Positions 1 through 4,802 of a DNA stretch of 4,802 bases are shown in pieces. The stretch is from a virus (Duplodnaviria > Heunggongvirae > Uroviricota > Caudoviricetes). Made by a program: the position numbers and the translations under genes. The stretch lies in IMG/VR virus record IMGVR_UViG_2617270946_000015; one strand, given 5' to 3'. Under the pieces are notes generated by a model. The model saw nothing but the letters and a program-made list of their open reading frames with translations. It ran no database searches and was not told the origin of the DNA. Position 1 is the stretch's first letter. Every line of letters begins with the position of its first letter.

Positions 1-2
1 CC

Positions 3-1232
3 CGTGAAATATACCGCCTGGAGCCTGAAGAAAGCTGTTGCCCGGAGTGTGGCGGTGAGCTGGATTATCTGGGGGAAGTCAGCGCAGAACAACTGGAACT
101 GGTGAGCAGCGCCCTGAAAGTGATCCGCACAGAACGGGTAAAAAAAGCCTGTACAAAATGTGACTGCATCGTTGAAGCACCGGCGCCGTCCCGCCCGATA
201 GAGCGTGGTATCGCGGGCCCCGGATTACTTGCCCGCGTGTTAACGGGAAAATACTGCGAACACCTGCCACTGTATCGTCAGAGTGAAATCTTTGCCCGAC
301 AGGGTGTCGAACTGAGCCGTGCATTACTCTCCAACTGGGTTGACGCGTGCTGCCAGTTAATGACGCCGCTGAATGATGCCCTGTACCGTTATGTGATGAA
401 TACCCGCAAGCTTCACACTGACGACACACCGGTAAAGGTACTGGCACCGGGCCTGAAAAAGACGAAAACAGGGCGCATCTGGACGTATGTCCGGGATGAT
501 CGCAATGCGGGTTCGTCATCTCCTCCGGCGGTCTGGTTCGCGTACTCATCGAACCGGCAGGGGAAACACCCGGAGCAACACCTCCGCCCCTTCCGGGGTA
601 TCCTGCAGGCGGATGCGTTCACAGGTTATGACAGGCTGTTCAGTGCAGAACGTGAAGGTAGTGCGCTGACAGAAGTTGCGTGCTGGGCTCATGCCCGGAG
701 AAAAATCCACGATGTATACATCAGCAGCAAAAGTGCGACGGCAGAAGAAGCCCTGAAGCGAATCAGTGAACTGTACGCCATCGAGGATGAAATACGGGGA
801 TTACCAGAGTCAGAGCGTCTTGCAGCCAGGCAGCAGCGAAGCAAAGCGTTACTGACGTCGCTGCATGAATGGATGGTGGAGAAGAATGGCACGCTGTCGA
901 AAAAATCCAGACTGGGCGAAGCGTTCAGCTATGTACTGAATCAGTGGGACGCCCTCTGTTATTACAGTGATGACGGTCTGGCGGAGGTGGACAATAACAC
1001 AGCGGAAAGAGCGCTTCGTGCAGTCTGTCTCGGAAAGAAAAATTACGTGTTCTTCGGTAGCGATCACGGCGGCGAGCGTGGAGCACTGCTGTACGGGCTG
1101 ATCGGCACCTGCCGTCTGAACGGTATCGATCCGGAAGCGTATCTGCGCCATATTCTGAGCGTACTGCCGGAATGGCCCTCCAACCGTGTTGACGAACTCC
1201 TGCCATGGAACGTAGTACTCACCAATAAATAA
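3..1232 (+). CDS. tnpC: IS66-family transposase (TnpC/orf3), 5'-partial; N-terminus lies upstream of the window
   Basis: Frame 3 is open from the window edge (pos 3) to TAA at 1230-1232 (410 codons); the ORF track reports it only from an internal GTG at 102. Translation from pos 3 reads ...EESCCPECGGELDYLGE...KKACTKCDCIVEAP..., a paired-cysteine zinc-finger region that I recognise as typical of IS66 TnpC, followed by a long transposase-sized body (HTDDTPVKVL, WAHARRKI, VDNNTAERALR). The stop is followed directly by an IS66-type terminus. Family assignment is from motif recall, not a search. Confidence 0.9.
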   Translation, partial: REIYRLEPEESCCPECGGELDYLGEVSAEQLELVSSALKVIRTERVKKACTKCDCIVEAPAPSRPIERGIAGPGLLARVLTGKYCEHLPLYRQSEIFARQGVELSRALLSNWVDACCQLMTPLNDALYRYVMNTRKLHTDDTPVKVLAPGLKKTKTGRIWTYVRDDRNAGSSSPPAVWFAYSSNRQGKHPEQHLRPFRGILQADAFTGYDRLFSAEREGSALTEVACWAHARRKIHDVYISSKSATAEEALKRISELYAIEDEIRGLPESERLAARQQRSKALLTSLHEWMVEKNGTLSKKSRLGEAFSYVLNQWDALCYYSDDGLAEVDNNTAERALRAVCLGKKNYVFFGSDHGGERGALLYGLIGTCRLNGIDPEAYLRHILSVLPEWPSNRVDELLPWNVVLTNK

Positions 1233-1261
1233 GCGTCAATACGGTGCTCCGTTGACGCTTA
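1230..1261. repeat. Perfect 10-bp palindrome (TAAGCGTCAA / TTGACGCTTA) with 12-nt spacer inside the IS66 terminal inverted repeat, overlapping the tnpC stop codon
   Basis: Seen directly: 1230-1239 taagcgtcaa and 1252-1261 ttgacgctta are exact reverse complements; spacer 1240-1251 tacggtgctccg. The tnpC TAA (1230-1232) lies in the left arm. Confidence 0.6.
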
Positions 1262-1262
1262 C

Positions 1263-1471
1263 GAATTACCGGAAAAGAACTCTCTATTTTCTCTTCACGC
1301 TTAAATGCAAATAAATTCCCGATCGTTATCGACTGGTTAAGTAAAGGGTTAATTAAACCAGAAAAATTAATTACCCATACGTTTGATTTCCAGCATGTTG
1401 CTGATGCCATTAGTTTATTTGAACAGGATCAAAAACATTGCTGCAAAGTCTTACTCACTTTTTCTGAATAA
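1263..1471 (+). pseudogene. rspB: 3' fragment (last ~69 codons) of a zinc-type medium-chain dehydrogenase/reductase gene, truncated at its 5' side by the IS66 insertion; rspB-like
   Basis: In-frame translation 1263..1468 gives ITGKELSIFSSRLNANKFPIVIDWLSKGLIKPEKLITHTFDFQHVADAISLFEQDQKHCCKVLLTFSE, stop TAA 1469-1471. This is a typical C-terminal tail of a Zn-dependent MDR alcohol/threonine-dehydrogenase-type protein (LITH...F...KVLL ending). The frame has a TGA at 1253-1255 inside the IS terminus, so the gene has no start here. The rspB name rests on my recollection that rspB flanks the Qin prophage integrase in E. coli K-12; unverified. Confidence 0.55.
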
Positions 1472-1528
1472 TACCAATAACGGCGAGTAAGTAGTACGCA
1501 TCTTACCTCTTTTTTAGAGATAACCATT

Positions 1529-1639
1529 ATGACAATAGAAAAACACGAAAGAAGCACTAAGGATTTGGTGAAAGCAGCAGTATCGGGATGGCTGGGCACT
1601 GCGCTTGAATTTATGGATTTCAAGAGTCATGCGTGTTAA
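1529..1639 (+). pseudogene. ydfJ: 5' fragment of an MFS (metabolite:H+ symporter-type) transporter gene, interrupted after ~31 codons by prophage integration; ydfJ-like
   Basis: ATG at 1529, 57 bp downstream of the dehydrogenase stop. Translation MTIEKHERSTKDLVKAAVSGWLGTALEFMDF ends in the G-x-x-x-E-(W/F)-x-D-F signature found at the start of TM1 in MHS-family transporters (ProP/KgtP/ShiA-like). The sequence then diverges (KSHAC) and stops at 1637-1639, 20 bp before the convergent integrase stop. ydfJ is recalled as the gene split by the Qin prophage in E. coli K-12; symbol unverified. Confidence 0.5.
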
Positions 1640-1658
1640 CTATTTGATAAATATTAAA
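1604..1658. other. Approximate chromosome/prophage junction (attL or attR core expected here)
   Basis: Transporter similarity ends at about codon 31 (pos 1621) and the integrase stop is at 1659-1661. The interval is A+T-rich and contains a short inverted repeat, cttgaa (1604-1609) / ttcaag (1619-1624). The exact core cannot be defined without the other prophage end or an uninterrupted allele. Confidence 0.3.
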
Positions 1659-2954
1659 TTAATTTTTCATTGCTTCGTTATGGGGCATGGTTGGGGCAAA
1701 CTCGCTTAACTGTGTATTTAACAAAGCTACCTGTGCATTATTGTTTTCAGACATCCATTTTCCGTATACCTGAAATACCATTTGCGCATCTGCATGGCCC
1801 ATCTGGTTTGCTATAAATGCCGGGTTAGCACCAGCTGTCAGCGACCAGCAGGCATAAGTATGTCTCGACTGATATGATTTTCGATGGCGGAGTCCGGCAC
1901 GTTTTATCGCTGCGTCCCACATCTGCCTTATTGAGTCAACGGTAAAATGGTCACCATAATTTTTTACTCTCGCTGACACTTCAGGTTGAAAAACAAAGGT
2001 GCATTTTTGTTTTTCTGTTCTGCCATACTCTCTGAGGTGAACATCAATGATATGCTCTTTGCTCAGTCTCGTTAATGTCATCTGACTCCGGAGAGCGTCG
2101 ATTGCTGGCTTAATAAGATGAATGACCCGATTGGTTCCCGCCTGTGTTTTTGGTACCGTGAAACGGTCTTTTGCTAAATTTCTCCTGATCATCATTGTTC
2201 CATTTTTCAGATCTATGTCCTCCCATCCAAGTGCACACAGCTCACCAGGGCGAACTCCAGTATAAACAGAAACACACCATAAATTTTTTGCTTGCTGATT
2301 TCTGCACGCATCGATAAGACGGATAAATTCTTCCCGCGAAAGAGGATCCGGAATGGTTCTTGATTCCTTTAATGGCGAGATCCCCTTAAACGGATTATCT
2401 GCCAGGTAACCGTTATCAACACCAAACTGGAACACGGCGTTAAGATTTGTCATGTAATTATTTACAGTTACAGCCGATCTCCCTGGTTGTGTAACAATAT
2501 AGTTACTTTTGGGGATCTGGTATCCAGTCAGTAACTCTTTACGAACCTCCAGTAATTTTTCTTTATTAATCGATGAGGCAAGATTTTTTTCACCGATTAT
2601 GCTCAGGATATTTTTGATGACGGCACGGTATGTGTTGAGTGATGTTTTGGCGACTTCAGTTTCTTTCAGTGCCAGAAATTTTTCAGCCAGTTCTTTTATG
2701 GTTAAATCTTGTCGGGCCTCACCAAATTTTTCCAGATTGCGTGAGGAGGGAAACTGTTTTGCATAGTCGAAAACACCAGTTTTTATTGCGTAACAAACAG
2801 AGGAGCGTAGTTCACCTGCAACGCGCCTGTTTTTTGCTGTGTCAGGAACCCCCAGATTTTCCCTGACTCTTACGTCTTTATAAACAAACCAGATACGTAA
2901 TTTCCCTCCATGGTTTTCCACGCCTGTCGGATATTTCATTTCAACTTCTCTCAT
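1659..2954 (-). CDS. int: Phage tyrosine integrase (site-specific recombinase) with N-terminal arm-type DNA-binding domain
   Basis: 431-codon ORF. N-terminus YPTGVENHGGKLRIWFVYKDVRVRE resembles the arm-binding domain of Rac/e14/Qin-type lambdoid integrases. The catalytic region carries VYTGVRPGEL (Arg box), ...SRHTYACWSL... (R-H) and ...MGHADAQMVFQVYGKWM (His and the Tyr nucleophile). The longest ORF starts at ATG 2954 (MREVEM...); the internal ATG at 2939 (MKYPTGVE...) is preceded by a GAGAGAAG purine tract and may be the real start. Confidence 0.93.
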   Translation of the reverse strand: MREVEMKYPTGVENHGGKLRIWFVYKDVRVRENLGVPDTAKNRRVAGELRSSVCYAIKTGVFDYAKQFPSSRNLEKFGEARQDLTIKELAEKFLALKETEVAKTSLNTYRAVIKNILSIIGEKNLASSINKEKLLEVRKELLTGYQIPKSNYIVTQPGRSAVTVNNYMTNLNAVFQFGVDNGYLADNPFKGISPLKESRTIPDPLSREEFIRLIDACRNQQAKNLWCVSVYTGVRPGELCALGWEDIDLKNGTMMIRRNLAKDRFTVPKTQAGTNRVIHLIKPAIDALRSQMTLTRLSKEHIIDVHLREYGRTEKQKCTFVFQPEVSARVKNYGDHFTVDSIRQMWDAAIKRAGLRHRKSYQSRHTYACWSLTAGANPAFIANQMGHADAQMVFQVYGKWMSENNNAQVALLNTQLSEFAPTMPHNEAMKN

Positions 2955-2973
2955 TAGTTAGTGTGGCTTTTAG

Positions 2974-3225
2974 TCAAGTAAGATGACGTCTTGGTCTCGC
3001 TGATGCCTGGCGCTCAATCCAGCGATCAATTTCTTCCAGGTTGTAAAAGCATGGACTGTTATCCCATGGCATACCGTCATGAGCGACATGCTTATATTCC
3101 CTTCCTTCCATAAACGATTTTTCCCGGGCCTTTTTTAACGTACCTTTTTTTATTCCTTTCAGCGCAATTAACTGCTCTTCGGATACCCATTTGCCGGGAG
3201 AGACAATCATGATTACTTCGCTCAT
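2974..3225 (-). CDS. xis: Excisionase-like / small DNA-binding recombination directionality factor (putative Xis)
   Basis: 83-aa basic ORF immediately upstream of and co-directional with int (19-bp gap), the canonical xis-int arrangement. The motif ...KGTLKKAREKSFMEGREYKHVAHDGMPWDNSPCFYNLEEIDRWI... resembles the excisionase-like small proteins found next to integrases in enterobacterial prophages. Assignment is by position and motif recall, not a search. An alternative start at the second ATG (MIVSPGKW) is possible. Confidence 0.7.
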   Translation of the reverse strand: MSEVIMIVSPGKWVSEEQLIALKGIKKGTLKKAREKSFMEGREYKHVAHDGMPWDNSPCFYNLEEIDRWIERQASARPRRHLT

Positions 3226-3254
3226 CGATTTCTTTATCTCTTACATCAGACGAG

Positions 3255-3286
3255 CGCCGGTTGCAGAATACCAGTCACAACCGGCG
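3255..3286 (-). promoter_or_regulatory. Intergenic inverted repeat (9-bp arms, 14-nt spacer) between the exonuclease-domain gene and xis; possible protein-binding site or RNA hairpin
   Basis: 3255-3263 cgccggttg and 3278-3286 caaccggcg are exact reverse complements. It lies in the 72-bp gap between the stop of the upstream gene (3298) and the xis start (3225). No U-tract follows on the transcribed strand, so it is not a classic intrinsic terminator. Confidence 0.3.
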
Positions 3287-3297
3287 ACAGTTGAACA

Positions 3298-4797
3298 TTA
3301 AGAATCAGCCTGACTCGGGATCAGTTTTTGCCAGATAACTGAAACGTATTTTGCCTGGTAACGGGCGTCATCAAGTGCATTATGGCGCTCACCTTCGAAT
3401 GGAATAGCCGTTCTGGCATCGAAGTCTATGGCTTTCCCCAGCTCAACGATTGTGCGTACATCGCGATCGTTGTAGTAACGCCACGGGCAGGGGATCCCCT
3501 GCCGTTCGTATGAACGGCGCAAAATCGTGTTGTCGAAGTTGGCTCCATTTCCCCAAACCTGAACAAAAAATTCACCGGAGTTTTCGTCGATAAATTCTCG
3601 CAATTGTAACAGTGCATCATCTAACGGGATTTCATCGGTCATAATGGCAGATTGCGCTTCGCGTGATTGCTTAAGCCACCATTTAATGGTGTCCCGATCA
3701 ATGACTCCGCCAGCAGTTTCCAGATCGATAGTCTTACTAAATTCCGGTCCCATATCTCCGGTTTGCGGATCGAAAAATATTGCACCTATTGAGATGATCG
3801 GGGCATCAGGATTTTTTCCCATGGTTTCAAGGTCGATCATTAGATGGTCACACGTCCTGCTGGTGGATGTGATTTCTTGATGACCGTTCACCTTAATTGA
3901 GTGATCTGCCGTCTCGCCAGTTTCATTATCGCTATCGTGATGCTGATTGCCGCCAGTGTTCTCCTTGTGTGGATGTTCAGCGCCTTCCATTTCCTCCGGA
4001 TTATCTTCCTGAACTTCAGGCTGATACTCTTCATCGAATGTTTCCTGGTATGTTGCGTCGCCCATTACCGCGCCACAATCAGGGCAGTTGCCGCCGCCGG
4101 TCTGACCGCAGGCGGTGCAGACTTTTTCCACTTCCTGTTGCGCCACTGATTCAGGCTGTTTCGTTTCTGGCTCGTTTTGTAACGCATTTGGGCTGTTTTG
4201 TTCCGCTTTCTGGTCGTTCTGTTCCGTTTCTTGCTGGTTCTGGTTCACAGAATCGCGGGTCTGGTTCCCCTTAACCCATTTCGGATCATTCGGGTCGCTA
4301 ATCCCTTCAACAAATTCACCACGTGATACTGCAAGCAGTTCATCGGCGTCAGGCTGGCTGATATTGGCTGCCTGCATAATTTTGTTTACTTCGTCAGCGG
4401 TAACTTTTACTGACCCTGGTTGTGCGGTCGTGTCAGATGCACCAGTATTTTGTTGTGAACCTGAGTATGTACCGTTTTTGCAGGCGAAATATTCTTCTTT
4501 CGTGATTTCAGTAGCCCCAGCAGACAGCGCCTTATCCAGACCAGAAAGTTTGTTTGCGCGACCGTATTTTTCGCCATCCTTGTCGGTGAAGAGGAAGTAG
4601 AACGGCCCCTCACGTTCTACAGATGGTTCGACTTCCACTTTGCATTCGGTTTTTTCGTTGTCCGGAATTGCCGTTTCCACTGCATCAGTTTCTGGTACTG
4701 GCGACGAGAGAGTATCAGTTGCGCTCTGATTTGTTCCTTCATCTTCAAACACGCCCTTTGTAGTCAGGTATTCAGTAATGTATTTGTTCAGTGCCAC
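3298..4797 (-). CDS. Prophage multi-domain protein: N-terminal domain of unknown function, acidic Q/N/E-rich linker, C4 zinc ribbon and C-terminal DEDDh-type 3'-5' exonuclease domain
   Basis: 499-codon ORF, stop TAA at 3298-3300 (minus strand). The C-terminal ~190 aa carry the three DnaQ-like exonuclease motifs in order: Exo I D-x-E in [10 protein letters not shown], Exo II in [15 protein letters not shown], Exo III H-x4-D in [13 protein letters not shown]. Upstream is a CxxC-x10-CxxC ribbon ([16 protein letters not shown]) flanked by strongly acidic low-complexity sequence. The reported start is a GTG at 4797; the frame stays open for the 5 nt to the window edge, so the true start may lie beyond the window. 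Confidence 0.85.
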
Positions 4798-4802
4798 AGG
4801 GT

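Follow-up and report, generated by a model that had tools for sequence, protein, structure and literature searches.

An ISEc47 element splits rspB beside a Qin-type prophage in an Escherichia coli draft genome

The DNA considered here, hereafter the window, is a stretch of 4,802 nucleotides that begins within an IS66-family element, continues with part of a dehydrogenase gene and ends in prophage DNA. It represents the entire draft contig JNRI01000126.1 of assembly GCA_000704605.1, the two sequences being identical. The locus raises the question of how the element came to adjoin the gene fragment: by transposition into the body of the gene, as the original prediction held, by a deletion or rearrangement, or through an error of assembly. 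The features from which the answer is drawn are listed in Table 1.

Table 1. Features of the window and of two comparison loci. Positions refer to the window unless a locus is named.
Feature	Position	Strand	Remark
Right-hand 1262 bp of ISEc47	1-1262	+	Element positions 1280-2541 of 2541 bp; IS66 family
tnpC, C-terminal 409 codons of IS66-family DDE transposase	3-1232	+	Cut by contig start; stop TAA 1230-1232
Right terminal inverted repeat	1230-1262	+	Ends ...CGCTTAC; IS66-family copies part after 1262
In-frame TGA within IS end	1253-1255	+	Closes rspB frame upstream; from translation
Right copy of 8-bp target-site duplication GAATTACC	1263-1270	+	Window reads CGCTTAC, then GAATTACC GG
3' fragment of rspB, nucleotides 812-1020 (last 69 codons and stop)	1263-1471	+	No start codon of its own
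Native rspB-ydfJ intergenic spacer	1472-1528	+	Spacing as in L023 (rspB ends 1532, ydfJ starts 1590)
First 31 codons of MFS transporter gene ydfJ	1529-1621	+	Then prophage DNA; stop 1637-1639
Left (integrase) end of Qin-type lambdoid prophage in ydfJ	1622-4802	-	Junction identical to K-12 Qin
int, 426 aa	1659-2939	-	Pfam Arm-DNA-bind_2 and Phage_integrase (tyrosine integrase)
Excisionase-family gene	2974-3225	-	Pfam DUF1233
3'-5' exonuclease gene, partial	3298 to contig end	-	Pfam Rv2179c-like
IS66-family insertion in rspB, AP025180.1	L005 11469-14938	minus strand of locus	
IS1-associated loss at rspB, AP026503.1	L025 4001-6300		

The IS part of the window was identified as ISEc47, a name that we adopted from the RefSeq annotation. 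Positions 1-1262 were 100% identical over 1262 bp to copies annotated as 'IS66-like element ISEc47 family transposase' and had no mismatches to the ISEc47 copy of E. coli ST540. The length and ends of the element were set from two copies flanked by 8-bp duplications. Its left end reads GTAAGCGTAAAGCC... and its right end ...GTTGACGCTTAC; independent copies part exactly at these bases, and the termini GTAAGCG...CGCTTAC were confirmed at both ends in two ISEc47 copies. The target duplications of these two copies, CTTTCAAT and AATAAGAC, are 8 bp each. An 8-bp target-site duplication is typical of the IS66 family, the members of which encode a DDE transposase, TnpC, and have terminal repeats that begin with GTAAGCG.

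The coding content of the element agreed with this assignment. According to Pfam, the tnpC fragment contains DDE_Tnp_IS66 (E 1.2e-97, profile positions 1-283 of 284), zf-IS66 and DDE_Tnp_IS66_C; in reference copies of ISEc47, the full-length gene measures 1614 bp. The window starts inside tnpC, and the order tnpA-tnpB-tnpC was seen in the reference element and in contigs of the same and sister assemblies that carry the left junction. In these contigs, the three genes have HTH_Tnp_1, TnpB_IS66 and LZ_Tnp_IS66/zf-IS66 domains.

The position of the right IS end was located by multiple alignment. Three other IS66-family copies matched the window through ...GACGCTTAC (position 1262) and differed directly beyond it. 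Some BLAST alignments apparently ran 14-18 bases beyond the IS end; these were chance extensions, as the multiple alignment parts right after TTAC. The right terminal repeat also contains a stem-loop, AAGCGTCAA ... TTGACGCTT, that occupies positions 1230-1261 and begins at the tnpC stop codon. RNA folding gave a 9-bp outer stem and -17.1 kcal/mol, with z = -2.98. The same sequence is present in the three other IS66-family copies, and no U-tract was found at the stem-loop. A scan of positions 1000-1800 on both strands for promoters and terminators found none, and thus lends no support to an outward promoter or a terminator at the IS end.

We compared the whole window with 5,426 complete RefSeq E. 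coli genomes using megablast. All of the chromosomal alignments that include rspB begin at position 1263, from where they span rspB and the integrase, excisionase and exonuclease genes. Positions 1263-1471 correspond to the final 209 bp of the intact gene (rspB, 1020 bp; locus L001, 3190-4209) and have no mismatches to the rspB of K-12 or of loci L006-L010. The matches are exact and to known sequences, so chance need not be considered. In RefSeq genomes, rspB is annotated as encoding a Zn-dependent oxidoreductase; we take the product to be a sugar-acid dehydrogenase with a role in L-gulonate catabolism, an assumption on which nothing here rests. With ISEc47 ending at 1262 and rspB nucleotides 812-1020 beginning at 1263, the predicted insertion of an IS66-family element into the body of a dehydrogenase gene is borne out.

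The reading frame of the fragment likewise conforms to what had been described, namely a frame that is open to the natural stop of the gene at 1471 and preceded by an in-frame TGA in the IS end. The TGA lies at 1253-1255; from 1256 onwards the frame contains no stop until the TAA at 1469-1471. No ATG, GTG or TTG start yielding an ORF of at least 40 aa was found in the rspB frame of the fragment. Lacking a usable start, the fragment is not a small gene of its own. On the minus strand, a 63-aa antisense ORF crosses the junction (1219-1410); an exact look-up of its product found nothing on record.

The simple-insertion model predicted a left junction in which ...GGAATTACC is joined to GTAAGCGTAAAGCC..., with GAATTACC as the 8-bp duplication. 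It also predicted a fusion protein of 290 aa, comprising RspB(1-273) and VSVKPMPSVTPAPCRLN, which we built on the RspB allele that matches the 209 bp of the window perfectly. An exact look-up found this protein, P0001, in E. coli draft genomes (KDA79943.1, KDW76864.1, KDY88109.1 and KDY93803.1). By the same look-up, the fusion built on four other RspB alleles was absent from the public protein collection. The contigs that encode P0001 carry ynfA, rspA, rspB', tnpA, tnpB and tnpC', and then end within the IS.

The left junction was also found in the assembly of the window itself. Contig JNRI01000040.1 of GCA_000704605.1 (locus L018) ends with rspA, rspB(1-819) and the left end of ISEc47, and its junction reads ...CAGCAAG GAATTACC followed by GTAAGCG. 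The 5' part of the gene, which the original prediction proposed to seek at the other IS end, is therefore present, and the 8-bp duplication sought with it is GAATTACC, which flanks the IS at both junctions in this assembly. When the rspB part of JNRI01000040.1 was joined to window positions 1263-1471 and one copy of GAATTACC was subtracted, a 1020-bp rspB was obtained that had no mismatches to K-12 or to five other genomes. The synteny around rspB is kept as in K-12, with ynfA-rspA-rspB' on the left and rspB'-ydfJ' on the right. These data demonstrate the identity of the IS, both of its junctions, the target duplication and the exact restoration of rspB in silico. The gene had been called truncated: it is indeed interrupted, but the term is imprecise, as rspB is split rather than deleted and its first 819 bp are kept at the other end of the IS.

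No single contig of GCA_000704605.1 spans the IS, positions 1159-1279 of which fall between the two contigs. In a sister assembly, a contig (L017) extends 1488 bp into the IS, and its overlap with window positions 1-209 is identical. From the orientation of the two junctions, the matching duplication and this overlap, we infer that one continuous copy of the IS joins them. The left IS parts in L017 and L018 (1158-1488 bp) have 4-5 mismatches to the reference ISEc47. These occur at IS positions 370-1065 and are clustered near the contig ends; they probably arose from several IS66-family copies that were collapsed by short-read assembly and do not represent real divergence.

The best explanation, which we hold with high confidence, is a single simple transposition of ISEc47 into rspB in an E. 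coli lineage that carries a Qin prophage. In the mechanism that we propose, the full-length element (2541 bp; tnpA, tnpB and tnpC) would have transposed once into codon 271 of rspB, duplicating the 8-bp target GAATTACC. The host lineage would already have carried a Qin-type prophage in the neighbouring ydfJ.

The alternatives differ from this account in what they place at the far end of the element. It is improbable that a simple insertion was followed by recombination with another ISEc47 copy that inverted or translocated a segment, such that the two halves of rspB are now non-adjacent. In favour of such an event, the contigs break within the IS, which points to more than one similar copy in the genome, and recombination between mobile elements at ydfJ has been documented to give inversions in other strains (PMC8112680). 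Nevertheless, both junctions are oriented as those of one intact element would be, the sister contig continues to IS position 1488 and is identical to the window where the two overlap, and nothing in the data requires a later rearrangement. That the IS-rspB junction is a chimera produced in assembling a short-read draft contig is scarcely credible, even though the window, at 4.8 kb, is a draft contig with its start in a repeated element. The left counterpart of this junction, bearing the same 8 bp, belongs to the same assembly; moreover, the left junction is found on nine contigs, and among the matches listed are three draft assemblies from NCBI and two metagenome assemblies from ENA. A chimera would also not generate a precise target duplication.

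We attach next to no probability to the remaining reading, in which the remainder of rspB was lost through an IS-mediated deletion or other rearrangement that ends at the IS, or in which the 209 bp are a naturally small gene. A loss of this kind exists in AP026503.1, where rspB breaks off at nucleotide 852, followed by an IS1 and then by prophage tail genes. For the window, the deletion reading is refuted by GCA_000704605.1, in which the first 819 bp of rspB are at the other end of the IS together with the duplication. A small gene is contradicted by the lack of a start codon and by thousands of genomes in which the same piece forms the 3' end of a 1020-bp gene.

The simple insertion has clear consequences for the coding capacity of rspB. 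In the left half, nucleotides 1-819 are read as part of a 290-aa product composed of RspB residues 1-273 and 17 residues encoded by the IS; this product is without the last 66 residues of RspB. Split in this way, and with a 3' part that lacks a start codon, rspB is a pseudogene. Judging from the sequence, RspB activity has probably been lost. The insertion was presumably neutral or nearly so, because the prophage at ydfJ had already broken the rspA-rspB-ydfJ-ydfI cluster.

That prior interruption is evident on the right-hand side of the window. The ORF at position 1529 translates to 36 aa, comprising 31 YdfJ residues and five foreign residues. Genomes with an intact ydfJ align only through window positions 1621-1624, and a base-by-base alignment with intact ydfJ parts after ...ATGGATTTC at 1621. 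Locus L023, used for the native spacing in Table 1, is from a genome in which both rspB and ydfJ are intact. The host segment between the IS and the prophage accordingly extends from 1263 to 1621, or 359 bp, its boundary being defined to within the length of the att core; this agrees with the estimate of about 360 bp of host DNA between two mobile elements. Lambdoid phages are known to integrate in ydfJ, and the att core of phages at this locus is 18-19 bp (PMC8112680).

Two regulatory consequences that the original prediction had drawn from this arrangement do not hold. Prophage genes were expected to come under readthrough from the IS. However, int and the excisionase and exonuclease genes all lie on the minus strand and are directed towards the IS, so readthrough from tnpC would be antisense to int and would not give sense expression. 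Similarly, the transporter start was said to be separated by the IS from an upstream promoter. This point is moot: the prophage has already cut ydfJ at codon 31, as in K-12, and for a gene of only 31 codons, separation from a promoter changes nothing.

The ydfJ-prophage junction is common, being carried by 2704 of the 5426 complete genomes, or about half, and an exact look-up listed the integrase protein in 26,529 blocks. The closest complete genome to the window is 99.4% identical overall. Positions 1472-3876 are identical to several genomes that have the same integrase. From 3877 to 4802, within the exonuclease gene, there are more than 100 position-wise differences to those genomes, a pattern suggestive of either an indel or mosaic exchange within the low-complexity centre of the gene. 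The 426-aa int and the excisionase-family gene are intact at 1659-3225, and the integrase of the K-12 Qin prophage is a remnant beside IS2. As both genes are intact, the prophage of the window lineage may still be able to excise.

By contrast with the prophage junction, the IS-rspB junction was absent from all 5,426 complete RefSeq E. coli genomes. An exact scan for the 34-base right junction also returned no match among GTDB species representatives or JGI metagenome contigs. Uninterrupted rspB is the norm: 4974 complete genomes have a match to rspB, and in 4881 of these a single stretch accounts for 80% or more of the gene. Disruption of rspB of any kind affects about 2% of complete genomes. 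The ISEc47-rspB insertion is rare and lineage-specific and, because its flanks are identical, recent.

Other IS disruptions of rspB occur in E. coli AP025180.1 and AP026503.1. AP025180.1 (L005) resembles the window in that an IS66-family element lies in rspB, is flanked by an 8-bp duplication and adjoins the same prophage integrase. Unlike ISEc47, however, the element is 2442 bp long, encodes a TnpC of 512 aa, is inserted after rspB nucleotide 604 and has duplicated GGAAAAAG. It is an independent event. AP026503.1 (L025) is similar to the window in having an IS in the 3' part of rspB, near a prophage. It differs in that the element is a 768-bp IS1, situated after nucleotide 852 and followed by prophage tail-fibre-assembly and invertase genes. 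The 3' end of rspB, ydfJ' and the int of the window were not found in the 3.2 kb beyond this IS1. Rather than a simple insertion, this is a deletion or rearrangement associated with IS1 that reaches from rspB into a prophage; it occurs on 24 or more contigs.

Further truncated RspB proteins were noted. P0002 and P0006 have the tails VMMPTY and LVMTPTY, respectively, at different codons. These tails look like read-through into IS1 terminal repeats; the one IS1-like tail that we checked against DNA is that of P0005. In all, five IS-linked disruptions of rspB were identified: ISEc47, the 2442-bp IS66-family element of AP025180.1, one confirmed IS1 and two inferred from IS1-like tails.

It is nonetheless unlikely that rspB has been struck repeatedly by IS through selection or local structure and not by neutral accident. 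With about 2% of genomes disrupted, the pattern suggests a dispensable gene in ordinary decay rather than a hotspot. Two causes of such targeting are conceivable: loss of RspB could be favoured once a prophage has broken the rspA-rspB-ydfJ-ydfI cluster or, alternatively, an IS beside a prophage end could promote deletions into the prophage, as in AP026503.1. The related suggestion that an arrangement of this kind is a hotspot for IS-mediated deletion proved too generic to be upheld: the window lineage has no deletion, and the IS1-associated case of AP026503.1 belongs to another lineage.

Compared with known systems, the locus is unexceptional. The ISEc47 copies of E. coli ST540, WP7-S17-ESBL-04 and others have the same termini, the same tnpA-tnpB-tnpC layout and an 8-bp duplication, and are 100% identical to the window over 1262 bp; the window copy differs from them only in its insertion site, rspB, with the target GAATTACC. 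K-12 shares with the window the identical ydfJ-prophage junction and the same rspB-ydfJ' arrangement. The two differ in that K-12 has an integrase remnant next to IS2 and an intact rspB, whereas the window has intact int and xis genes and a split rspB. ISEc47, rspB and the Qin-type prophage at ydfJ are thus all known, and the event is an ordinary, textbook IS insertion. Nothing new in mechanism, element or regulatory arrangement emerges from it; it adds one more pseudogene to a locus that a prophage had already disrupted. The ISEc47-rspB junction is, however, a lineage marker by which a small group of E. coli drafts and two metagenome samples could be typed.

Differences were also observed in the genes neighbouring this locus. 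In two sister assemblies (L017 and L019, 123-926), only 37 aa remain of ynfG, which directly adjoins a gene encoding an AntA-domain protein (phage antirepressor). The assembly of the window (L018) has a full ynfG of 205 aa. In L017-L019 (3421-5846), one ynfE/ynfF paralogue is split into products of 552-559 aa and 217 aa; in comparison loci L006-L014, the paralogues are 808 or 807 aa.
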